Source: Porticoccaceae bacterium (GTDB lineage: Bacteria > Pseudomonadota > Gammaproteobacteria > Pseudomonadales > Porticoccaceae). From it: DNA of 64,000 nt. The position numbers and the translations under genes were made by a program. Location: NCBI GenBank assembly GCA_029268475.1, contig JAQWNR010000022.1, forward strand, positions 29,882 to 93,881. Direction: 5' to 3'. Under the pieces are notes generated by a model. That model was not told where the DNA came from. It saw only the letters and a list, made by a program, of their open reading frames with translations, and made no database searches. Of the stretch, positions 1,693 to 60,307 are shown piece after piece (the stretch's first letter is position 1; each line of letters starts with the position of its first letter).

Positions 1693-3042
1693 ATGCACAA
1701 TAATCCTTCCGACAGACAGATCTATAGCGTCAGCCAGCTGAATCGCAGCGTCCGTCATCTGCTAGAAACGCAACTGCCGCTACTTTGGGTCGAAGGCGAG
1801 ATATCCAACTTTGCCCGCCCTGCCTCTGGTCACTGGTATCTCAGTTTGAAGGACGAACAGGCGCAGGTGCGCTGCGCTATGTTTCGCAATGCCAACCAGC
1901 GGGTCAATTTCCAGCCCAGTAATGGCACGCAGATCTTGGTGCGTTGTCGCGCTGGGCTCTATGAGGGGCGCGGTGAATATCAGCTGATTATCGAACATAT
2001 GGAAGAGGCTGGCTTTGGCGCCTTGCAGCGGAAATTTGAGCAACTTAAGCAACAACTGAGCAATGAGGGCCTGTTTGATAACCAGCATAAACGGCCAATG
2101 CCAACCTCAGTAAGCCATATTGGTGTTATCACCTCGGCAACGGGTGCTGCCGTCAAGGATATCCTCTCCGTATTACATCGACGTTTTCCTGCCATCAAAG
2201 TCAGTATTTTTCCTACCGCGGTGCAGGGCGAGCAAGCGGCAGCACAGATTATTGATGCTCTGGCCATGGCCAATCAACAGGGCCAGTGCGATGCCCTAAT
2301 TGTCGGTCGTGGCGGTGGTTCGCTAGAGGATCTCTGGCCATTTAATGAGGAATCTGTTGCTCGCGCGATATTTAACAGTGAAATTTCCATTGTTAGTGCG
2401 GTGGGACACGAGGTGGATTTTACCATCGCTGATTTTGTCGCCGATCTGCGGGCGCCAACACCCTCCGCGGCGGCGGAGCTGCTAAGCCCCGATGGAGAGG
2501 ACTTACTTAATCAGTTTATGGGGTTTGAAGTACTGCTCAGCGAGGCGTTAATACGCATCATTAGACAGCTAGAGCAACGTACAGACTATTTACAAAAACG
2601 CCTGCAGCATCCCGGCAAAAAGTTACAGCAACAGAGCCAGCATATGGCGCACCTGCAGATTAGACTGCAGCGCGCGATCGCAGGTCAGTTACAGCAGCAA
2701 CGCGCGACCATCGATCAATTACAGAATAAGCTGCTCGGTCAAAGTCCTGAGCAAACTATCAGCCATGGTCAACAGCGTATTACACAGTCGGTTAAGCAAT
2801 TGATGCGCTCAATACAACAACAGCTTGCAGCCAAACAGACTAAAACCAATCAAGCCATGCATTTACTGGATACCGTTAGCCCATTGAGCACATTGGGACG
2901 CGGCTACGCCATTATCCGCGATCAACACAACACAGTGATCAAAACGGTCAACGAGGTCAGCGCAGGCGATCAGTTAACCGGTCAACTCGCCGATGGTGAA
3001 ATTGTGGTCTCGGTAAGTGCAACCACTACCAAAACATTATAG
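1693..3042 (+). CDS. xseA: Exodeoxyribonuclease VII large subunit
   Basis: 449 aa. The N-terminal OB-fold region YSVSQLNRSVRHLLE...LWVEGEISNF...SGHWYLSLKD, the catalytic region and the long Q-rich coiled-coil tail are typical of XseA. Confidence 0.9.
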   Translation: MHNNPSDRQIYSVSQLNRSVRHLLETQLPLLWVEGEISNFARPASGHWYLSLKDEQAQVRCAMFRNANQRVNFQPSNGTQILVRCRAGLYEGRGEYQLIIEHMEEAGFGALQRKFEQLKQQLSNEGLFDNQHKRPMPTSVSHIGVITSATGAAVKDILSVLHRRFPAIKVSIFPTAVQGEQAAAQIIDALAMANQQGQCDALIVGRGGGSLEDLWPFNEESVARAIFNSEISIVSAVGHEVDFTIADFVADLRAPTPSAAAELLSPDGEDLLNQFMGFEVLLSEALIRIIRQLEQRTDYLQKRLQHPGKKLQQQSQHMAHLQIRLQRAIAGQLQQQRATIDQLQNKLLGQSPEQTISHGQQRITQSVKQLMRSIQQQLAAKQTKTNQAMHLLDTVSPLSTLGRGYAIIRDQHNTVIKTVNEVSAGDQLTGQLADGEIVVSVSATTTKTL

Positions 3043-3065
3043 AGATCTGTTTTGGTCCAGCCTGT

Positions 3066-4265
3066 TTAGTTGGCCAAGGCCTGGTCTAGGTCGGCAATAA
3101 TATCCTCAACCGCTTCAAGCCCTGCAGAGATACGCACCAACCCTTCGCTAATACCATGCTCAGCGCGCTCTTGCAGAGTATATGTAGAATGGGTCATGCT
3201 GGCTGGATGTTGTACTAAGGTCTCGGCATCACCCAAACTAACCGCCAACTTGGCCAGCTTAAGGTTATTCAACATGCTAACAGCCGCCTCGTAGCCGCCT
3301 TTTAGTTCTAGTGCAATCATGCCGCCAAAACCGTCCATCTGGAGACTGGCAAGTTGATGCCATGGGTCATTTTTTAGCCCCGGATAACATACCTGATCAA
3401 CAGCAGGATGTTGTTCTAGCATTTCAGCGATAGCCTGGGCATTTTGGCAATGACGCTCCATACGTAACTGCAATGTTTTGATGCCACGCAAAATAAGAAA
3501 CACATTTAACGGGGCAATCACTGCACCGGTCATATCCTTTAAACCATAGACCCGTATCTGCTCAATGGTTGCGGCATCAGCGACCACCGCACCCGCAATA
3601 AGATCGCCATGACCACCGAGATACTTGGTCGCTGAATGCACCACAATATCGGCACCCAAAGTTAATGGCCGCTGCAGTGCCGGTGTGCAGTAGGTGTTAT
3701 CCACCATACACTTTATGGCGGGATTATAGCTTTTAGCTAAGGCACTAACGGTGGCAATATCGATCACTCGCATCGTGGGATTGACCGGCGTTTCAAAATA
3801 CAGCAACTTGGTGTGCTCAGTCAGATTAGCCTGTATTTCCTCAGGATCACTAAAATCGGCAAAACAAATATCCACACCAAACTTTTTTAGCCCATGCTGC
3901 ATAAAGGCAAACGTGCAACCATAGACGGTCTTATCCACCAGCAACTGATCACCCGGCGCCAATAATGTCCACAGAGTGGCGGTAATCGCGCCAATGCCAG
4001 ACGCAGTAGCTAGAGCCGCCTCGCCCTCTTCCAAGTCGGCCAGTCTTGCTTCTAAAATGGCCTGCGTCGGGTTGGAAATACGACTGTAGAAATGTCCCGG
4101 CTGCTCCCCTGAAAAACGTCCTGCTCCTTGCGCCACAGTATCAAAAGTAAATGTCGAGGACATAACGATAGGGGGATTGAGTGCACCCTCATGATCACTA
4201 CTGTTATAGCCGGCATGAACAGAGCGAGTAGCAAAGGATAGCTTGGTATTTTTATCTGCAGACAT
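3066..4265 (-). CDS. PLP-dependent Cys/Met-metabolism enzyme, methionine gamma-lyase-like
   Basis: 399 aa. It has FATRSVHAG at the N-terminus and the PLP-lysine motif HSATKYLGGHGD. It lies divergent from an Lrp/AsnC regulator, as in the mdeA/mdeR arrangement of P. putida. Confidence 0.75.
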   Translation of the reverse strand: MSADKNTKLSFATRSVHAGYNSSDHEGALNPPIVMSSTFTFDTVAQGAGRFSGEQPGHFYSRISNPTQAILEARLADLEEGEAALATASGIGAITATLWTLLAPGDQLLVDKTVYGCTFAFMQHGLKKFGVDICFADFSDPEEIQANLTEHTKLLYFETPVNPTMRVIDIATVSALAKSYNPAIKCMVDNTYCTPALQRPLTLGADIVVHSATKYLGGHGDLIAGAVVADAATIEQIRVYGLKDMTGAVIAPLNVFLILRGIKTLQLRMERHCQNAQAIAEMLEQHPAVDQVCYPGLKNDPWHQLASLQMDGFGGMIALELKGGYEAAVSMLNNLKLAKLAVSLGDAETLVQHPASMTHSTYTLQERAEHGISEGLVRISAGLEAVEDIIADLDQALAN

Positions 4266-4391
4266 AACATTTAGTCCGGATTATTTTAGGCTATCGTAAC
4301 CCTATTAAATGGGTTAAATCTCCTTTTTAAATTTGCCGAATGGGCAATAAATAGCTATATTCACTACAATAAATAATTTTTTAGGTGAATT

Positions 4392-4871
4392 ATGCTAACT
4401 ACAAAACTTGACGCTATGGATCGTCGTATTCTTGAACAGATTCAGGCTGACGGCAGCATCAGCAATCTAGAACTAGCCGAACGTGTTGGTCTATCTCCCT
4501 CCCCTTGTGCACGCAGAGTAAAACTACTTCAAGAGAGCGGTATTATCAGCCGCCAAATTACCCTGCTTGATCAGAACAAATTAGGGTTACCCATCAGCAT
4601 CTATATTTCCGTAAGCCTAGATCACCAGAGCCCCGATCGTCTGAGCAATTTTGATAATAAGATCAGTGGCTGGCCAGAGGTTATTGAATGTTCATTGATT
4701 ACCGGCAGCGACACAGACTACCTGCTTAAAGTGGTTATGCCAGATATGGACTATTACCAGCGGTTTTTACTCGATAAGCTTAATCAAGTTGAAGGGGTCA
4801 GTAGCATTAGGACTAGTTTTGTCTTGCGCCGAGTACTACAGAGAACAGAGATGCCGCTACATCATATTTAG
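4392..4871 (+). CDS. Lrp/AsnC-family transcriptional regulator
   Basis: 159 aa. LDAMDRRILEQIQADGSISNLELAERVGLSPSPCARRVKLLQESGII is the canonical HTH_AsnC region, followed by a RAM effector domain. Confidence 0.9.
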   Translation: MLTTKLDAMDRRILEQIQADGSISNLELAERVGLSPSPCARRVKLLQESGIISRQITLLDQNKLGLPISIYISVSLDHQSPDRLSNFDNKISGWPEVIECSLITGSDTDYLLKVVMPDMDYYQRFLLDKLNQVEGVSSIRTSFVLRRVLQRTEMPLHHI

Positions 4872-4894
4872 TCAGCTAGCCAATCGCTAAGTGA

Positions 4895-6469: not shown

Positions 6470-7411
6470 TCACCAGGGCAAGGCATCCAAATCAACATTA
6501 CCGCCAGTAAGAATTATCGCCACGCGCTTACCCTGAAACTGCTCTGGTTGATCCATGATGGCAGCTAACGGCACAGCACAGGATGGCTCTACGATAACCT
6601 TAAGCCGCGTCCAAATCAGCCGCATTGCTTCAATAATCCGCGCTTCAGAGCAGAGCAAAATATCATCTACCGACTCACGGATAACATCAAAGTTACGCAC
6701 CCCCACAGTGGCCCGCAAACCATCGGCAATGGTGTTGGGAGTAAACTCAGCTAGCCTACTACCGCGATTAAAGCCCAACCAAGCATCATTGGCTTGCTCT
6801 GGTTCCGCGCCGATCACCTGCGCACTGGACAGCGCTTTAACACAGATACCTGTGCCACCTAGCAGACCCCCTCCACCAATGGGTGCCATAACAATATCCA
6901 CCGGCTGTTCAATCTGTTCAAGTAGCTCCAACGCTGCCGTGCCCTGCCCAGCAATAATTACATCACTATCATAGGGGTGGACCAGATTTAAGCTGTGCTC
7001 TGCGATCAGTTGAGTTACGGTATCTTCCCGCGCCGCCATGGTCGGCTGACAAATTTCAATCGTCGCGCCATAGCCGGCCACCGCGGCTTTTTTAACCTCA
7101 GGGGCATTGCTGGGCATAACCACTGTGCATGGGCTATTTTTAAGTGCCGCGGCCCACGCCAGTGCAGCACCATGGTTACCCGACGAATGGGTGATGACGC
7201 CTTGCTGCATAATCGCATTATCCATTGAAACAACGGCATTACAGGCACCACGGGCTTTAAAGGCACCAATTTTCTGTAAATTTTCGGCTTTAAAAAATAA
7301 CTCACAACCAATGATTTTATTGAGTGCACGACTCTGCAGAACGGGCGTGCAGTGGATATATGGCTGTATGCGTTTATGCGCCTGTTGAATATCGTCAATG
7401 GTTATGTTCAT
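6470..7411 (-). CDS. PLP-dependent serine/threonine dehydratase family enzyme (serine racemase / hydroxyaspartate ammonia-lyase-like)
   Basis: 313 aa. It has the PLP lysine motif KIGAFKARGA, HSSGNHG and a G-rich loop PIGGGGLLGG. Confidence 0.75.
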   Translation of the reverse strand: MNITIDDIQQAHKRIQPYIHCTPVLQSRALNKIIGCELFFKAENLQKIGAFKARGACNAVVSMDNAIMQQGVITHSSGNHGAALAWAAALKNSPCTVVMPSNAPEVKKAAVAGYGATIEICQPTMAAREDTVTQLIAEHSLNLVHPYDSDVIIAGQGTAALELLEQIEQPVDIVMAPIGGGGLLGGTGICVKALSSAQVIGAEPEQANDAWLGFNRGSRLAEFTPNTIADGLRATVGVRNFDVIRESVDDILLCSEARIIEAMRLIWTRLKVIVEPSCAVPLAAIMDQPEQFQGKRVAIILTGGNVDLDALPW

Positions 7412-39195: not shown

Positions 39196-39372
39196 ATGCT
39201 TAATTACCGCCTAGTCGCAACCCTCCTTCTGCTCAGTATTGTGGTCTTCCCTATGGCCATCCAATGGGCTAAAGAGCCCAGTGGAAGCTGGTTTCGCCCT
39301 TTTGTAGTATGGGCAATGCTGGTATTCGCTGCCTATGTTGCCTATCGACACAGAGGTCGCGATGAATCCTGA
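39196..39372 (+). CDS. 58-codon two-TM small ORF overlapping the cbrA start (cbrX-like)
   Basis: Own translation gives MLNYRLVATLLLLSIVVFPMAIQWAKEPSGSWFRPFVVWAMLVFAAYVAYRHRGRDES. It falls below the size cutoff of the ORF track. The last 11 nt overlap the cbrA ATG at 39362. Confidence 0.5.
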   Translation: MLNYRLVATLLLLSIVVFPMAIQWAKEPSGSWFRPFVVWAMLVFAAYVAYRHRGRDES

Positions 39373-42229
39373 GGTTTTACTGAGTTGTCTGGCAGTAATA
39401 GTGCTCGGTCTATTTGCATCGAAGTGGTTACTAAGACGCGCTCAAGGTAATAGAAAAGATTTGGCGCTTAATCTTGGTCTACTATCGGGCACTGGTGTGC
39501 TGATGGCGATGGGCTCAATAGAAATGGCCGGACGCTATGGCTACAGCATTATTCTTGCTCTGGTAGCATTCAGCCTAGTTTTTGTTATATCACCGCTTAT
39601 CTTTGCCCCCATTCATCGCCTTAACGGCGTGATTCGCTTTGCTACCTCAATTGATTTTTTGACTTTTAGATTTCGCGGAAGAACAGTGGCAATAATCGCC
39701 TGCATAAGCCTTACTGTTGCCACCGTGCCACTTATTCTCGCTCAAATCACGGCCATAGAGTCAGTTGCTGATTATTTATTCGGTAGCCCGTCTAAGCTAC
39801 TCATTCTGTTATTAATAACCGGGCTATTAATCTCACTTAACCTGTTTTCGATCCAACTTAATAGCGAAAATAATCTTGGTTGGATAATGACAACAGCTGG
39901 CTTATTGCTCCTGCCTGCTTTGGCTCTTTCTGCTTGGACATCGATTCAAGCAGTATTCGGCGGTCTAGCGGAAATGAATACTTGGGTCATAGACAGTGGG
40001 CAGCGAAATATTGTGCAACGCATGGATGCCTCATACAGCCTGTTTATTATCTTTCTCGCCGCCAGCTTTGCCTCACCGATCAATTTTAGACTTTTGGTAG
40101 CAGACAATATTTCTGAACGTCAGACTGATATGACCTCTTGGGCCTATCCACTACTTGTTCTGTTGGCCTGCATTCCCGTATTTCCGTTGCTTTGGTCCGG
40201 TATCTCCCTACAGTCTTTGTCGCCACTACAGGAATATCTGTTTAGCCTACCCTTACTGACTAACCAACCACTAATCTCTGGTCTGGGTGCTGCCTGTATC
40301 ACCATGCTAGCCATATCATTTGCCTGTAGCCTTATCGTTATCTCCTCGAAAATACTGATCAATAGCTGCCTGCTACCAACCAAGGACTTGCATCAACAGC
40401 CTCAGTTAACAGTATGGCTAAAACGTCGGCAACTCCTTATTGCTACCGGTATGGTTGTCTTTTGCATGGCCCTGAGCCTGACAGGAAAAGGTCGCAGTAT
40501 TACCGATTACTATCTGGCAGGTTTCGCCGGTCTGGCCCAGTTGACACCGGGGATGCTTGCAGCAACTTACTTACCAGGCGTTAATCGCCGAGGGTTTCTT
40601 GTTGGTCTGACAGCGGGCATGCTGTTGTGGTTGGTCACCATTGCACTGCCCTTATTATTTGGCGATTGGACCTGGCAACTACCCATGTCCGATAAAACCA
40701 TTCAAGTAGGCATGCAAAATTGGAGTATCTGGGCCATTGAAGCGCTATTGGTCAATATCACACTGTGCACTGTATTCAGTGTATTTAGTACGATGGATAG
40801 CGAGCAAAAAACCTTTGCTAGCCTGTGCATGGTTGACAATGTCTATATTCCTGCGCGTATCGAAATTGCACAAAAATCAGTCGATGAAATTACCGCCAAC
40901 TTACGCCTGTCTCTGGGTGACGATGCGGATAACGAGGTGCTACAAGCTCTTGAAACGTTGGGATTACAACACAGCGAAGTCAGGCCTGCTGCGCTGCGCC
41001 AACTTCGGGATACAATTAATGCCTCACTGAATATGCGCTTTGGTGTGTTGGCAGCCAATCGCATCATGGAAAAATCACTCCCTGTCACCATACCCAGTAC
41101 TAATGATCCAGACGACATCTATCTTATTGAATCGATGTTAGCCATTCATGGTGACCGATTAACGGGTATTGCCAGTGAACTTAACAAACTGCGTATGCAT
41201 CATCGAGAAATTATCGATAATTTACCTATCGGTGTGATCTCAGTTGACCCGCACGGGGAAGTGGTCAAATGGAACTCAGCAATAGCCCGTTACACTGACC
41301 TCAACAGCGATGTGATTACTGGCAGTTCGATAAGTGAGTTGCCGCAACCCTGGGGTCCTGCGATCACCGATTTTATTACTAGCGATGCCAGCATAATTGA
41401 TGATTTACAACTTGAAATACAGGGTGAGGTCCGTTGGTTTAGTCTGCAAAAATCTGCACAACAGACGAATCCAGACACAGACATAGTAGTGCTTGTAGAA
41501 GAGCATACCAGCGCGGTCAATCTGATCCAGAAATCCATTGATAATGAACGACTGGCATCGGTTGGTCGATTGGCAGCAGGCGTTGCCCATGAAATAGGCA
41601 ACCCCGTCACCGGCATTGCTTGCCTTGCGCAGAATCTACAACATGAAACTGACAGCAATGAGATAGAGTATACCGCTGAACAGATTTTATCTCAGACTCA
41701 ACGTATTAACCGTATTGTGCAATCACTCCTTAGCTTCTCTCGAGGTGGTAACCCCGTAGCTTCGACAAAGCAAACCATCTATCTGCGACATGCGGCCAAA
41801 GAAGCGATTAACTTGCTCACTATGAGCGCCTCTCAAATCGACGTGACATTTAGTACAGAGATTGACGACGAACTAACTATTACTGGCGACTATCATCACT
41901 TAATTCAAATATTTCTCAACTTACTCAGTAATTCTCGCGATGCCTCCCCTGCCGGTGGTGTTATTAGTATCAAAGCTAACCGCACAGATCATCAGGTTCA
42001 GCTTAAAATCAGCGATGAGGGTTCAGGTATTGATGACAAGGTAAAAGGGCATTTGTTTGAGCCCTTTGTTACCAATAAGGATCCTGGCAGTGGCACGGGA
42101 TTGGGATTATGGGTGGTCATAAATCTAGTTAACAGCATGGGAGGGGACATTTCCATAGTCAGCCCAGCAGAAAATAGCCAACATGGTACTACTGCAACTA
42201 TTAGTTTTCCCCTATCATCCACATCATGA
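39362..42229 (+). CDS. cbrA: CbrA-like sensor histidine kinase with N-terminal SLC5 (sodium:solute symporter-like) domain
   Basis: A polytopic N-terminal half of about 500 aa is followed by a PAS region, the H-box AAGVAHEIGNPVTGI and the HATPase motifs SDEGSGI and GSGTGLGL. Synteny is dksA-gluQ-cbrA-cbrB-pcnB-folK as in Pseudomonas. The start is preferred at MNPEVLL (39362). Confidence 0.8.
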   Translation: MNPEVLLSCLAVIVLGLFASKWLLRRAQGNRKDLALNLGLLSGTGVLMAMGSIEMAGRYGYSIILALVAFSLVFVISPLIFAPIHRLNGVIRFATSIDFLTFRFRGRTVAIIACISLTVATVPLILAQITAIESVADYLFGSPSKLLILLLITGLLISLNLFSIQLNSENNLGWIMTTAGLLLLPALALSAWTSIQAVFGGLAEMNTWVIDSGQRNIVQRMDASYSLFIIFLAASFASPINFRLLVADNISERQTDMTSWAYPLLVLLACIPVFPLLWSGISLQSLSPLQEYLFSLPLLTNQPLISGLGAACITMLAISFACSLIVISSKILINSCLLPTKDLHQQPQLTVWLKRRQLLIATGMVVFCMALSLTGKGRSITDYYLAGFAGLAQLTPGMLAATYLPGVNRRGFLVGLTAGMLLWLVTIALPLLFGDWTWQLPMSDKTIQVGMQNWSIWAIEALLVNITLCTVFSVFSTMDSEQKTFASLCMVDNVYIPARIEIAQKSVDEITANLRLSLGDDADNEVLQALETLGLQHSEVRPAALRQLRDTINASLNMRFGVLAANRIMEKSLPVTIPSTNDPDDIYLIESMLAIHGDRLTGIASELNKLRMHHREIIDNLPIGVISVDPHGEVVKWNSAIARYTDLNSDVITGSSISELPQPWGPAITDFITSDASIIDDLQLEIQGEVRWFSLQKSAQQTNPDTDIVVLVEEHTSAVNLIQKSIDNERLASVGRLAAGVAHEIGNPVTGIACLAQNLQHETDSNEIEYTAEQILSQTQRINRIVQSLLSFSRGGNPVASTKQTIYLRHAAKEAINLLTMSASQIDVTFSTEIDDELTITGDYHHLIQIFLNLLSNSRDASPAGGVISIKANRTDHQVQLKISDEGSGIDDKVKGHLFEPFVTNKDPGSGTGLGLWVVINLVNSMGGDISIVSPAENSQHGTTATISFPLSSTS

Positions 42230-43479
42230 ATAAAACTCAACACCATATCCTTATTGTCGAAGACGAAGAGATTATTCGTACCTCACTGCGCAAACTTCTC
42301 GAGCGCAACGGCTTTTCAGTCTCTGAAGCTATCAGTGTCAAAGCCGCACAGCAGGCATTTAATCTCAATAGCTTTGACCTGGTGATTAGCGATCTCAGGC
42401 TGCCAGGCAGCGCGGGTACTGATCTAATTAAAGGCTCTAACACTGTGCCGGTTATCATTATGACCAGTTATGCCAGCCTGCGATCTGCGGTTGAGACGAT
42501 GCGTCAAGGCGCTGTCGATTATATTTCTAAGCCCTTTGATCATGACGAAATGATCAATGCTGTAAAACGTATTTTCGAAAAACCTATAAAAAGCACCCAA
42601 CAGTTAAACCGTCTGCTTATGGGTGACAACTCGGAAATGTTAAGAATACTACGCACGGTTCATAAAGCTGCACCGACCACCGCACCGGTACTTATTCAAG
42701 GCGAAAACGGTACTGGGCGGCGTACTATTGCAGAAATAATCCATGCTGACAGTGGTTTAGAAGAGCGATCTTTCCGCAATATTAATTGCTCCTCAGCTAC
42801 GGCAACGGAACTATCGGATATATTGGATCGGGGTAATGTTGGCACTCTGTTCCTTAACAATATTTGTGAACTCACCCCCGCTCTGCAACCCTATGTACTG
42901 AAAATCTTGCAGAAAAAAGCATCTCGCATTATTGCCTCAGCAGAGCACAACCTCAAAGCCCTAGTAGAAAAAGGTCACTTCCGCAAAGATTTGTACTACA
43001 GCCTTAATGTAGTCAAGATTCATGTACCCACATTGCGTGAAAGAACTGGGGATATACCAGCCTTGATTAATTATTTTGTCAACTTCTACGGTACCGAGCT
43101 AGGCATGGATATAGTCTTAACTGAAGACGCTATTCGCGCGCTGACCAACCATAGTTGGCCAGGTAATGTGCAAGAATTGCAAAATACCATCTATCAAGCT
43201 GTAATTCTTGCAGAAGCCGGAGAGCCGATAAATGCTCAGATGTTGGGTCTTAGTGATGCGCCCGACAATCATATTAATGAGGTAACTGGCGAAGTAGGTC
43301 ATCCAACCACATCCATAGATGGGCCAGCAGGCCTCTCACTCGAGGACTATTTCACCAGTTTCGTACTGGAAAATCAGGAAAATATGAGTGAAACAGCGCT
43401 AGCACAAAAACTTGGCATTAGCCGCAAATCTCTCTGGGAAAGACGTAATAAACTCGGGATTAGCCGTAAAAAAGCTTAA
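42226..43479 (+). CDS. cbrB: CbrB-like NtrC-family response regulator with degenerate AAA+ core
   Basis: It has a receiver domain (ILIVEDEE...DLVISDLRLPG), a central domain with GENGTGRR and TLFLNNI, and a C-terminal Fis-type HTH (MSETALAQKLGISRKSLWERRNKLGI). An ATGA overlap joins it to the cbrA stop. Confidence 0.8.
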   Translation: MNKTQHHILIVEDEEIIRTSLRKLLERNGFSVSEAISVKAAQQAFNLNSFDLVISDLRLPGSAGTDLIKGSNTVPVIIMTSYASLRSAVETMRQGAVDYISKPFDHDEMINAVKRIFEKPIKSTQQLNRLLMGDNSEMLRILRTVHKAAPTTAPVLIQGENGTGRRTIAEIIHADSGLEERSFRNINCSSATATELSDILDRGNVGTLFLNNICELTPALQPYVLKILQKKASRIIASAEHNLKALVEKGHFRKDLYYSLNVVKIHVPTLRERTGDIPALINYFVNFYGTELGMDIVLTEDAIRALTNHSWPGNVQELQNTIYQAVILAEAGEPINAQMLGLSDAPDNHINEVTGEVGHPTTSIDGPAGLSLEDYFTSFVLENQENMSETALAQKLGISRKSLWERRNKLGISRKKA

Positions 43480-43514: not shown

Positions 43515-43531
43515 TGTTTCTAAAAGTAACA
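43515..43531 (+). promoter_or_regulatory. Imperfect inverted repeat TGTTTC-N5-GTAACA upstream of the candidate sRNA promoter
   Basis: Read directly. The half-sites resemble the TGTTAC/GTAACA half-sites I recall for Pseudomonas CbrB, but the spacing differs. The centre is about 90 nt upstream of the predicted TSS. Confidence 0.3.
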
Positions 43532-43578: not shown

Positions 43579-43606
43579 TTGATGCGATGTGATTTCTGTT
43601 TAGAAT
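43579..43606 (+). promoter_or_regulatory. Sigma70-like promoter TTGATG-N16-TAGAAT
   Basis: Read directly, with the -35 at 43579-43584 and the -10 at 43601-43606. An AT-rich region with a T8 run lies upstream. Confidence 0.5.
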
Positions 43607-43612
43607 GGAGCT

Positions 43613-43738
43613 ACCAAGATTTTATTCTTGAGTAATAACAACAATAAATAATAAAAAACGGATGGATTGCAAAAAGTGTTCCAGAAGCTCAGGCTTTAAG
43701 AACCATTGAGGGGGGATGTCAAACGGCATCCCTTTTTT
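43613..43738 (+). ncRNA. Candidate CrcZ-like Hfq/Crc-sponge sRNA (about 125 nt)
   Basis: It occupies the cbrB-pcnB intergenic region where crcZ lies in Pseudomonas. It has a 5' hairpin CAAGA-UUUUAU-UCUUG (43615-43630), a 25-nt tract AAUAACAACAAUAAAUAAUAAAAAA (43634-43658) and an intrinsic terminator. No ORF is present. Confidence 0.5.
43713..43738 (+). terminator. Intrinsic terminator GGGAUGUC-AAAC-GGCAUCCC-UUUUUU
   Basis: Read directly. It is an 8-bp stem with one G-U pair followed by six U. Confidence 0.85.
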
Positions 43739-43834
43739 ATTGCCTGTGATTTTTACCAATAACAAGGAATACTCCCGCAACCGCTAATCCTCTGGTAAAC
43801 TCTTGCCCAACTATTGCTTACCGACACCCTTTTC

Positions 43835-45184
43835 ATGCTGAAACGTATCAGTCACTTTTTCTCACCTAACTCTCGCAAGCACAATACTAATGAGCATAGA
43901 GTGATTTTCAGTAACGAGCATAAATTGTCACCGAAGATGATCAATAAAGATGCTCTAAAGGTCGTTGAAGTACTTCAGGAGCATGGTTACGACGCCTATG
44001 TGGTGGGAGGCTCCATCCGTGACTTACTGCTAGGCCTCAAACCTAAAGATTTTGACGTTGCCACCAATGCTAGACCCAGTGAAATAAAGCCGCTATTTAG
44101 GCGTTCGCGCATTATCGGCCGGCGTTTTCAAATTGTGCATGTACAACTCGGTCGAGAACTCATTGAGGTGACTACGTTTCGCTCCAATGAAACAAAAGGA
44201 ACTGATAAAAAAGGTGGTAGCCGTCGCCAACAAGCGAATTCAGGCGTGCTCACTAGGGATAACGTGTTTGGCTCAATCAGCGATGATGCCAGCCGCAGAG
44301 ATCTAACCATCAATGCCCTTTACTATAATCCCAGTGACAACAGTATTCATGATTTCGCAGGCGGCCTTGATGATATTGATCAACGCCTGATAAGGATTAT
44401 GGGCGACCCCGCTACCAGGTTCCGAGAGGATCCAGTACGCCTACTCCGTGTTGCCCGCTTTGCCGCTAAACTAGGTTTTACTATTGATCCAATGACAGAG
44501 AAACCAATGCGCAAATTGGCCTCTAATCTGCAACACGTCTCCCCACCCAGGCTATTTGATGAAACCTTGAAGCTATTTATGAGTGGGCAGGGCTTGGCTA
44601 CTTTCTGGCTACTTTATGAATATGGTTTATTTGATTATATAGCGCCTCAAGTCAGCGCCATGATGAAAGACCGAAATAACCTCACCGGTAAACTTATTGA
44701 ACAAGCTTTCACCAATACTGATTTGCGTATTCGTAACAATAAGCGTGTTACACCCGCTTTTATCTATGCGGCATTGCTATGGCCTTCGGTACAACAGTTG
44801 GCAGCAGGTTATCGAGAACGCGGTAATAGTCCAGCCTACGCTCTCAGCAAAGCGGCAGGCGAAGTAATAGCCAAACAAATTCCAATCACGGCTATCCCCA
44901 AAAGATTTACCATGCCAATGCGTGAAATATGGGATTTACAGTTATTGTTACCGCGCCGCGGTGGGCACCGAGCTAAACGTCTCGTAGATCACCCAAGGTT
45001 TCGCGCTGCCTACGACTTTGTCTTATTGCGTGAGCAGGCGGGTGAGGAATTGAGCGGACTGGGCGACTGGTGGACCGCTTACCAAAATGCCGATGAAGAG
45101 AAACGTGAACAGATGGCCAAGGCGCTTGGCGAGCCAAAGCGCAACCGCAAACGCCGCAAACCCAGAAAACCCAAGACAGACTGA
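43835..45184 (+). CDS. pcnB: Poly(A) polymerase I
   Basis: It has VVGGSIRDLLLGLKPKDFDVATNA and RRFQIVHV motifs and a basic C-terminal tail. The start is ATG 43835 or TTG 43814. Confidence 0.9.
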   Translation: MLKRISHFFSPNSRKHNTNEHRVIFSNEHKLSPKMINKDALKVVEVLQEHGYDAYVVGGSIRDLLLGLKPKDFDVATNARPSEIKPLFRRSRIIGRRFQIVHVQLGRELIEVTTFRSNETKGTDKKGGSRRQQANSGVLTRDNVFGSISDDASRRDLTINALYYNPSDNSIHDFAGGLDDIDQRLIRIMGDPATRFREDPVRLLRVARFAAKLGFTIDPMTEKPMRKLASNLQHVSPPRLFDETLKLFMSGQGLATFWLLYEYGLFDYIAPQVSAMMKDRNNLTGKLIEQAFTNTDLRIRNNKRVTPAFIYAALLWPSVQQLAAGYRERGNSPAYALSKAAGEVIAKQIPITAIPKRFTMPMREIWDLQLLLPRRGGHRAKRLVDHPRFRAAYDFVLLREQAGEELSGLGDWWTAYQNADEEKREQMAKALGEPKRNRKRRKPRKPKTD

Positions 45185-60107: not shown

Positions 60108-60307
60108 AAATATTTCAACAGTGCCCTTGGGTTACAACCGAGTCCTTCATTTAACTCGGCGATTTTACACCAGTCTCGTACGCAAAAGGAGATTGACGGG
60201 AAAATCATTTAGTTGGCCTGGGTAATTCACAGGTATGCTACTGTTACGTACCGTAAATTTTATACTCAGGATTTGTTTTCACTCGCCAGATCCTAGAAAA
60301 TACACCA

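Follow-up and report, generated by a model that had tools for sequence, protein, structure and literature searches.

A probable sigma-54-independent CbrB in SAR92-type Porticoccaceae, paired with a sigma-70-type promoter at the adjacent small RNA gene

In Pseudomonas, carbon catabolite control has the CbrAB-CrcZ system as its master switch, and sigma-54 (RpoN)-dependent activation is the hallmark of the CbrB group. The window analysed here, a stretch of 64,000 nucleotides (nt) from a Porticoccaceae bacterium (contig JAQWNR010000022.1), carries an ortholog of the response regulator gene cbrB (42226..43479, 417 amino acids (aa); this and all window features below lie on the + strand). In SAR92-type Porticoccaceae, with a probability of roughly 70%, CbrB, formerly an enhancer-binding ATPase of the sigma-54 kind, has become an atypical activator that works without sigma-54 and does not hydrolyse ATP. 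The protein has lost the parts that serve sigma-54, and the small RNA (sRNA) gene located behind it carries a sigma-70-type promoter, so that regulator and target appear to have been rewired together. A preliminary description of this DNA, focused on the interval 42700-42945 inside the cbrB frame, had proposed a CbrB ortholog with a degraded sigma-54-activation core, and every motif string it quoted is present in the window where it was placed.

The CbrB protein consists of several domains: a receiver at aa 1-118 with the phospho-acceptor D56 in FDLVISDLRLPG, a degenerate AAA+ core at aa 132-270, an AAA lid at aa 271-340, and a linker followed by a Fis-type helix-turn-helix (HTH) at aa 368-417. 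Pfam recovers the receiver, the sigma-54-interaction AAA+ domain, the AAA lid and, weakly, the Fis-type HTH; the match to PF00158 is split into two stretches, and the shorter PF14532 matches end to end. The C-terminal pattern SLEDYFT.FVLENQENMSET.LA.KLGISRKSLWERRNKLGISRKK is common to the window CbrB, the canonical CbrB P0116 and the long-form loci. Within the AAA+ core, Walker A reads GENGTGRR (aa 159-166; 42700..42723), with the lysine replaced by arginine and the three glycines kept. In NINCSSATATELSDILDRGNVGTLFLNNI, 17 residues (S189-V205) separate the INC motif from G206, where Walker B starts. At this L1, or GAFTGA, deletion site (42808..42846), ELSDILDRGNVGT replaces the canonical ELFGHEKGAFTGAxxxRxGLxxxAxGGT; HMMER alignments to NtrC4 (3dzd), LuxO (5ep0) and NtrC1 (4l4u) open a query gap across ESELFGHEKGAFTGA that is about 19 residues long, and the gap against P0116 measures about 19-20 columns. 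Walker B reads LFLNNI (42847..42864), with Asp-Glu changed to Asn-Asn. At the L2, or pre-sensor-I, deletion site (42910..42927), QKKASR stands in place of about 19 residues (e.g. EGEVRPIGAVVSRKVDVR), a gap of about 13 residues relative to NtrC4 and of 14-15 columns relative to P0116, leaving LQKKASRIIAS before sensor I. The arginine-finger position, equivalent to R168 of PspF, is Ser259 in FRKDLYYSL (43000..43002), and the sensor II position is Gln316 in WPGNVQEL (43171..43173). Across the catalytic set of bacterial enhancer-binding proteins (bEBPs), the window thus reads GTGRR, FLNNI, YYSL and GNVQE. Together, these substitutions and the gaps in L1 and L2 leave the AAA+ domain with neither its active site nor the two loops that contact sigma-54. 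The preliminary description was accurate on the altered Walker A and Walker B, the missing GAFTGA segment and the shortened segment before the RIIA(A/S) strand, and the losses go further than it stated, with the arginine finger (S259) and sensor II (Q316) as additions.

A genome scan with one genome per species yields 80 CbrB loci, and ten of them encode the truncated form (419-436 aa), giving 11 truncated loci with the window; the sources are HTCC2207, SAR92 BACL16, the Porticoccaceae UBA1989, UBA4026 and ANT-113, and related metagenome-assembled genomes (MAGs). Such a survey of marine relatives had been suggested beforehand, and the same deletions are found in all 10 SAR92/HTCC2207 genome loci. 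The canonical form occupies 68 of the 80 loci and retains GAFTGA, GxGKE, FLDEI, the arginine finger and sensor II with no exception; it comes from Pseudomonas, Marinobacter, Cellvibrionaceae, Microbulbifer, Halieaceae, Spongiibacteraceae, Oceanospirillaceae and one Porticoccaceae MAG. At the two remaining loci (L022, L037), no cbrB frame was recovered with the motif used, and they stand outside the split of 10 versus 68. A database search lists 120 protein clusters at 46-99% identity, 119 of them with the truncated architecture and P0116 as the exception; the named clusters among the matches listed carry the label Porticoccaceae. GAFTGA is absent in all 119 truncated clusters. In their Walker A, G159 and G162 are invariant and G164 is kept in 118, with lysine in 85 and arginine in 34 at the lysine position. 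The Walker B glutamate position is asparagine in 108 of the 119, compared with FLDEI/V in 68 of 68 canonical loci; the arginine finger is retained in 10 clusters, compared with all 68 canonical loci; and sensor II, invariant among canonical loci, is arginine in 79.

The DNA behind cbrB follows the same division. A sigma-54 element was scored as TGGCAC-N5-TGC(A/T) with at least 10 of 12 positions matched and GG and GC required, within 600 nt 3' of cbrB; its background rate is 0.0097 per 600 nt. Such an element follows cbrB in 60 of the 68 canonical loci, against none of the 11 truncated loci, the window included (Fisher p = 8e-9, a value that overstates independence because the truncated loci reflect essentially one evolutionary event). 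Among the eight canonical loci scored negative, at least one (L024) has a variant -12, and another (L013) is cut by the contig end. An exhaustive search of 50%-identity representatives gives further syntenic CbrB orthologs, and three more GAFTGA-less loci among them (L091, L092, L095) also have no sigma-54 promoter, bringing the total to 0 of 14. Matches to the sigma-54 consensus across the 64-kb window show no excess over chance (51 observed, 47 expected). The truncated loci instead possess a conserved sigma-70-type promoter ahead of the sRNA, which in the window reads TTGATG-16-TAGAAT (43579..43606). In a nine-genome alignment of truncated loci, every sequence has CTTG and TA..AT, with the spacing between them fixed. 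The -35/-10 pair precedes the sRNA in nine of the initial 11 truncated loci and in four loci added later, among them L087, L088 and L092 (TTGAAG/TAGAAT in L092), and a CbrB-type site accompanies it in six of these 13, one of which is the window; the L095 promoter is ambiguous. The sigma-54 independence that the preliminary description had deduced from the protein is in this way supported by the target DNA. Pfam scans of 30 further open reading frames (ORFs) of the window find no rpoN, and the searched literature on SAR92 or HTCC2207 yielded nothing on rpoN or sigma-54. In L002, at about 7337-7352, the sequence TGGCAGTTTAAATGCT (GG-N10-GC) agrees with the sigma-54 consensus at 8 of 11 positions and is placed 3' of the CbrB-type site and 5' of the -35. 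It was considered as a sigma-54 relic and set aside; its distance of just about 12 nt to the upstream site departs from the canonical geometry, and it is probably a chance match.

The sRNA itself (43612..43741, about 130 nt) is a shorter positional counterpart of CrcZ, with a start predicted about 7 nt 3' of TAGAAT. A hairpin at the 5' end is followed by an invariant A-rich tract of AAN triplet repeats, AAUAACAACAAUAAAUAAUAAAAAA, which is single-stranded, and by two internal hairpins ahead of an intrinsic terminator. The position directly after cbrB, the AAnAAnAA-type A-rich motifs and the terminator are all CrcZ-like. Over nine truncated genomes the length is 128-160 nt (130 nt in the window), compensatory changes occur in 10 of 29 predicted pairs, and one further compensatory change separates the window from an 87%-identical relative. 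A covariance model (R1) built from truncated lineages only scores 126 bits at the window sRNA. On the same strand and just 3' of cbrB, R1 also finds the sRNA in the canonical loci L014, L024, L016, L043 and L025 (E = 9e-5 to 4e-4), which belong to Cellvibrionaceae and Porticoccaceae, with weaker matches elsewhere. In L014, L016, L025 and L043 the sRNA lies 47-99 nt 3' of the sigma-54 -12, and L024 has the variant -12 only. These matches behind sigma-54 promoters make the sRNA orthologous across both promoter classes. No Rfam family, CrcZ RF01675 included, matches the cbrB-pcnB spacer of the window even at E <= 10; RF01675 matches Pseudomonas only, with 330 bits at the same position in P. fragi (L023). 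AAN triplets bind the distal face of Hfq, as in Pseudomonas CrcZ. The triplets of the window sRNA would fit such binding, and by analogy we infer an Hfq-sponge role. In the HTCC2207 subclade, cbrA and truncated cbrB are kept and lie about 90 nt before pcnB, with no sRNA (L005 3283-3380; L010 7272-7362).

Upstream of the promoter, the putative CbrB site TGTTTC-N5-GTAACA (43515..43531) is centred about 88 bp 5' of the predicted sRNA start, and nowhere else in the 64-kb window is the motif matched perfectly. It agrees with the TGTTAC/GTAACA-type subsites that have been experimentally defined for P. putida CbrB, with a spacing of 3-12 nt (PMC6296734, PMC8871633). In the window and L001-L004 the site is fixed at -96..-80 from the predicted start, and the closer relatives L087 and L088 carry it without change. 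The site is not recognisable in L006, L008, L009, L007 and L092, all of which keep the promoter and the sRNA. A second candidate at 60242-60258, with two mismatches, between hemA and a tetratricopeptide repeat (TPR) gene, was rejected as chance (12 matches of this quality against 7.6 expected).

Orthology with CbrB, which had been claimed at the outset, is borne out by the same gene order, by a near-identical receiver and HTH, and by the placement of the truncated proteins as a single clade among CbrB sequences in both trees that were built. In the midpoint-rooted tree this clade falls outside all others. That position is read as a long-branch effect and was not accepted; the tree without the AAA core (neighbour-joining, no support values) nests the clade among marine lineages. 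The faster evolution of the AAA+ core compared with canonical CbrB is the one observation that would suit a relic in decay, an artefact of sequencing or assembly, or a paralog outside the CbrB group. Within-group identity of the core is 0.49 in truncated and 0.76 in canonical proteins, as opposed to 0.72 and 0.74 for the receiver and 0.87 and 0.86 for the HTH. Against such an explanation, seven contigs, drawn from several separate assemblies of metagenomes (ENA, NCBI, Logan, TARA-derived), encode the identical protein, more than 110 clusters among the matches listed have an uninterrupted reading frame, and synteny is complete. What remains of the protein is under purifying selection: among close relatives (82-92% identical), the ratio of nonsynonymous to synonymous substitution rates (dN/dS) lies at 0.06-0.13 for the AAA core, much as for the receiver, at about 0 for the HTH and at 0.27-0.53 for the linker. 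The fold is also predicted with confidence. AlphaFold2 with the CbrB alignment gives a mean predicted local distance difference test score of 82 with a confident AAA+ domain; the best Foldseek match of the model is NtrX, followed by NtrC1, NtrC4, LuxO, VpsR and FleQ, and superposition on the isolated AAA+ domains of PspF and NtrC1 gives root-mean-square deviations of 2.3-3.2 Å. The Pfam matches and this superposition identify the AAA+ fold as homologous to that of PspF and NtrC1. A relic, an artefact or a paralog is extremely improbable and already refuted by these data. As modelled, the AAA+ domain appears stripped of catalysis yet kept as a folded, selected module.

The proposed mechanism begins with CbrA, which would phosphorylate D56; the kinase, the receiver and the overlapping frames of the two genes are intact. 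The presumably inactive AAA+ domain, with its fold and glycine-rich P-loop kept, would serve as an oligomerisation module, possibly with nucleotide bound and not hydrolysed, and through it phosphorylation of D56 would control oligomerisation or DNA binding. The unchanged HTH would then bind TGTTTC-N5-GTAACA about 88 bp 5' of the sRNA start, and the bound CbrB would help sigma-70 RNA polymerase at the conserved -35/-10. The resulting A-rich sRNA of about 130 nt would presumably titrate Hfq (and Crc), like Pseudomonas CrcZ. Three elements of this scheme are inferred: that CbrB activates and does not repress, that it binds nucleotide and leaves it unhydrolysed, and that it contacts the sigma-70 polymerase. 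The invariant P-loop glycines and the asparagine at the Walker B glutamate position recall, by analogy, Walker B mutants that trap ATP, and the NtrC1 and PspF E108Q crystal entries, which are of this type, are among the structural neighbours of the model. A further parallel is R. capsulatus NtrC, to which ATP must bind but need not be hydrolysed.

Several observations weigh against this scheme, in addition to the shared ancestry of the truncated loci that enters the promoter comparison. The Lys-to-Arg change of Walker A in the window's subclade makes nucleotide binding uncertain. The truncated lineages in which the upstream site is missing imply that CbrB control of the sRNA may not hold everywhere. 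In HTCC2207-type genomes cbrAB is kept with no sRNA at the locus, and other regulator targets therefore have to be considered there; either the regulator has other targets or the sRNA must have moved. In P. putida, CrcZ is reportedly also produced by read-through from cbrB, so the sRNA need not depend on its own promoter alone. The lineages without the site and the HTCC2207-type genomes would both be explained if CbrB no longer activated the sRNA, with the sigma-70 promoter constitutive or otherwise controlled and CbrB acting as a DNA-binding repressor or regulator elsewhere. NtrX, the best structural match, is reported as a repressor, including of its own promoter (PMC6158489), which also suits this explanation. 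The promoter and its surroundings speak for activation instead: within the window's subclade, the site sequence and distance are perfect in five genomes across about 35% protein divergence, only CTTG of the -35 TTGACA is invariant, as is expected for an activator-dependent promoter, and the adjacency of cbrB and the sRNA gene is kept. A CbrB without a part in sRNA activation is accordingly judged unlikely. Far less probable still is a CbrB that continues to work with sigma-54 through another contact surface or in a mixed ring with an intact EBP, as in HrpR/HrpS. The sequence offers nothing for this explanation: no -24/-12 promoter lies 3' of cbrB in any of the 14 GAFTGA-less loci, L1 and L2 are deleted together with the loss of Walker B, the arginine finger and sensor II, and the sigma-54 consensus is not enriched in the window. 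It is close to refuted, and sigma-54-independent activation remains the favoured explanation.

Several of the further syntenic orthologs represent intermediate or variant forms. In P0127 (L091), GAFTGA is deleted, GKE, L2 and the arginine finger are kept, and Walker B reads DD. In P0129 (L093), the L1 loop has normal length without the GAFTGA motif, and Walker B reads AE. P0121 (L092) is truncated, with the sigma-70 promoter and an sRNA at 70.9 bits. P0130 (L095) is GAFTGA-less and has no cbrA, with the sRNA kept and no sigma-54 promoter; in this metagenomic locus (2487-4874), gluQ is followed directly by the GAFTGA-less cbrB of 457 aa, an orphan regulator still located 5' of the sRNA. The spacer of L091 has no sigma-54 promoter and contains only CGGCACTATGATCTCA at 3102-3117, in which a sigma-54 -24 half is joined to a -10-like TATGAT; this element is possibly a promoter caught in transition. 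The neighbour-joining tree built without the AAA core, which carries no support values, gives the partly degenerate forms a basal position in the GAFTGA-less clade, and this suggests stepwise decay. A tentative extension, which is doubtful at present, combines such a series with genome reduction in which SAR92 discarded sigma-54 altogether and CbrB is the retooled survivor. In this series GAFTGA would have been lost first, while the ATPase motifs and L2 were still present (P0127, P0129), followed by Walker B, the arginine finger and both loops; in parallel, the promoter of the orthologous sRNA would have been swapped from -24/-12 to -35/-10. If true, it would be a naturally preserved series of an enhancer-dependent regulator-target pair migrating to the housekeeping polymerase. 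Many more distantly related proteins, from uncultured Pseudomonadales MAGs, also combine a CbrB-like HTH (LGISRKSLWERRQ) with a missing or degenerate GAFTGA. The one checked, P0135 (L090), is non-syntenic and lies two genes from rpoD, and for this reason these proteins were not pooled with CbrB. They may include a separate family of atypical EBPs.

The gene order of the window is dksA-gluQ-(cbrX)-cbrA-cbrB-pcnB-folK-deoxynucleoside kinase (dNK)-panB, with the sRNA in a 354-nt spacer between cbrB and pcnB. CbrB is thus encoded directly 3' of a cbrA kinase gene and 5' of an A-rich sRNA and pcnB, as is typical of the group. The corresponding Pseudomonas genes are PA4723-PA4729. Their order is cbrX-cbrA-cbrB-crcZ-pcnB-folK (review PMC8871633). 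The window cbrA (39335..42229) encodes a sensor kinase of 964 aa, or 955 aa with the start 27 nt later that other gene callers choose, made up of a membrane domain, PAS, HisKA (H-box HEIGNP) and HATPase_c; its stop codon and the start codon of cbrB overlap in ATGA. In most loci, the frame immediately 5' of cbrB is a cbrA-like one of about 960-1060 aa that carries the H-box HEIGNP. Pseudomonas CbrA is described with an SLC5-type transporter domain; the membrane domain of the window CbrA (residues 1-580; 39335-41074) matches no Pfam family even at E <= 10. A cbrX-like ORF of 58 aa (39196..39372), with two hydrophobic stretches visible by eye, overlaps the cbrA start, and hydrophobic ORFs of 56-58 aa are kept also in L092 (1403-1573) and L093 (1365-1541). 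In Pseudomonas, cbrX is likewise a small ORF that overlaps the start of cbrA (PMC8871633); the apparent match in arrangement adds to the case for orthology. The pcnB gene, encoding poly(A) polymerase, occupies 43834..45184. On its 5' side, at about 43787-43802, lies the conserved element ATCCTCTGGTAAACTC, which looks like an extended -10 promoter for pcnB and is also found upstream of pcnB in L001-L011 and L043, that is, in truncated and canonical loci.

CbrAB has been stated to be exclusive to Pseudomonadaceae (PMC6296734, PMC8871633). Across the loci L013-L080, cbrA and cbrB lie in synteny, with a sigma-54 promoter and then an A-rich sRNA behind them, and these loci occur in Marinobacter, Cellvibrionaceae, Microbulbifer, Halieaceae, Spongiibacteraceae and Oceanospirillaceae. 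These cbr loci outside Pseudomonadaceae, Porticoccaceae included, contradict the published statement, and the cbr module is widespread in marine Gammaproteobacteria. CbrAB-CrcZ has also been described as strictly sigma-54 dependent (PMC6296734, PMC8871633). In SAR92/Porticoccaceae, an abundant oligotrophic lineage, the regulator and the sRNA promoter would both have moved to sigma-70. With orthologous regulator and target on both sides and partly degenerate forms available, the system provides an unusually clean natural comparison, which addresses the role of an AAA+ domain once ATP hydrolysis and sigma-54 contact are lost and the reuse of an enhancer-type upstream site at a sigma-70 promoter. 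Public records label these genes 'sigma-54-dependent transcriptional regulator'. For the truncated CbrB genes this annotation is almost certainly wrong, which serves as a practical warning.

One close reference is the CbrA/CbrB-CrcZ system of Pseudomonas and Azotobacter. The gene order, the receiver domain and the C-terminal HTH are alike, as are the TGTTAC/GTAACA-type subsites 5' of an A-rich sRNA located right after cbrB. CrcZ carries several CA motifs and measures about 400 nt, whereas the window sRNA has one A-rich tract in about 130 nt. Pseudomonas CbrB possesses GESGTGKE, LFLDE and GAFTGA, and crcZ is transcribed from a sigma-54 promoter with integration host factor (IHF) (PMC8871633, PMC6296734); the window CbrB, in contrast, is without the loops and the catalytic residues, and the promoter is of the -35/-10 kind. 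As read from the DNA, both the protein determinants and the promoter required for the sigma-54 hallmark of the group are missing from the window. The searched literature contains no paper connecting CbrB with the loss of GAFTGA.

In kind, the window CbrB would be classed with the atypical EBPs, which comprise TyrR, PhhR, HupR, HsfA, NtrX, VpsR and the NtrC of Rhodobacter and Caulobacter. The promoters at which members devoid of GAFTGA act are of the sigma-70 type (PMC6158489; 10.1101/2023.06.06.543975). The window CbrB likewise combines a bEBP-homologous AAA+ domain that has no functional GAFTGA with a target promoter that, judged by sequence only, is of sigma-70 type. The preliminary description named R. 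capsulatus NtrC and TyrR as precedents; both are apt, but VpsR, in which GAFTGA and the Walker B residues are both lost (PMC6158489), comes nearer and is the nearest of the class in how much has been lost. VpsR of Vibrio cholerae shares the receiver-AAA+-HTH architecture, the absence of GAFTGA, a changed Walker B (Asn-Asp) and the use of sigma-70 polymerase (PMC6158489). Unlike the window CbrB, it is not an ortholog, its L1 and L2 loops have more normal length, and it needs cyclic di-GMP, for which no such role is indicated in CbrB. NtrX of Brucella abortus (5m7n/o/p) is the top Foldseek match to the full-length model (E = 5e-30) and is also atypical, with a varied GAFTGA; unlike CbrB, it belongs to another orthologous group (26% identity), and it binds ATP and ADP in crystals and represses its own promoter. 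TyrR, PhhR, HupR and HsfA are bEBP-derived regulators at sigma-70 promoters as well (PMC6158489), but they differ in N-terminal domains and targets, and no matched sigma-54-to-sigma-70 promoter swap of an orthologous target is documented for them here. The NtrC proteins of R. capsulatus and Caulobacter crescentus resemble the window CbrB in being orthologs of sigma-54 activators in which an L1 deletion removes GAFTGA and which work at sigma-70 promoters; phosphorylation is still required. These proteins keep Walker A and Walker B and need ATP binding in Rhodobacter, without hydrolysis (10.1101/2023.06.06.543975), or the binding and hydrolysis residues in Caulobacter. The SAR92 CbrB goes beyond them, with Walker B, the arginine finger and L2 lost, and sensor II lost in many members.

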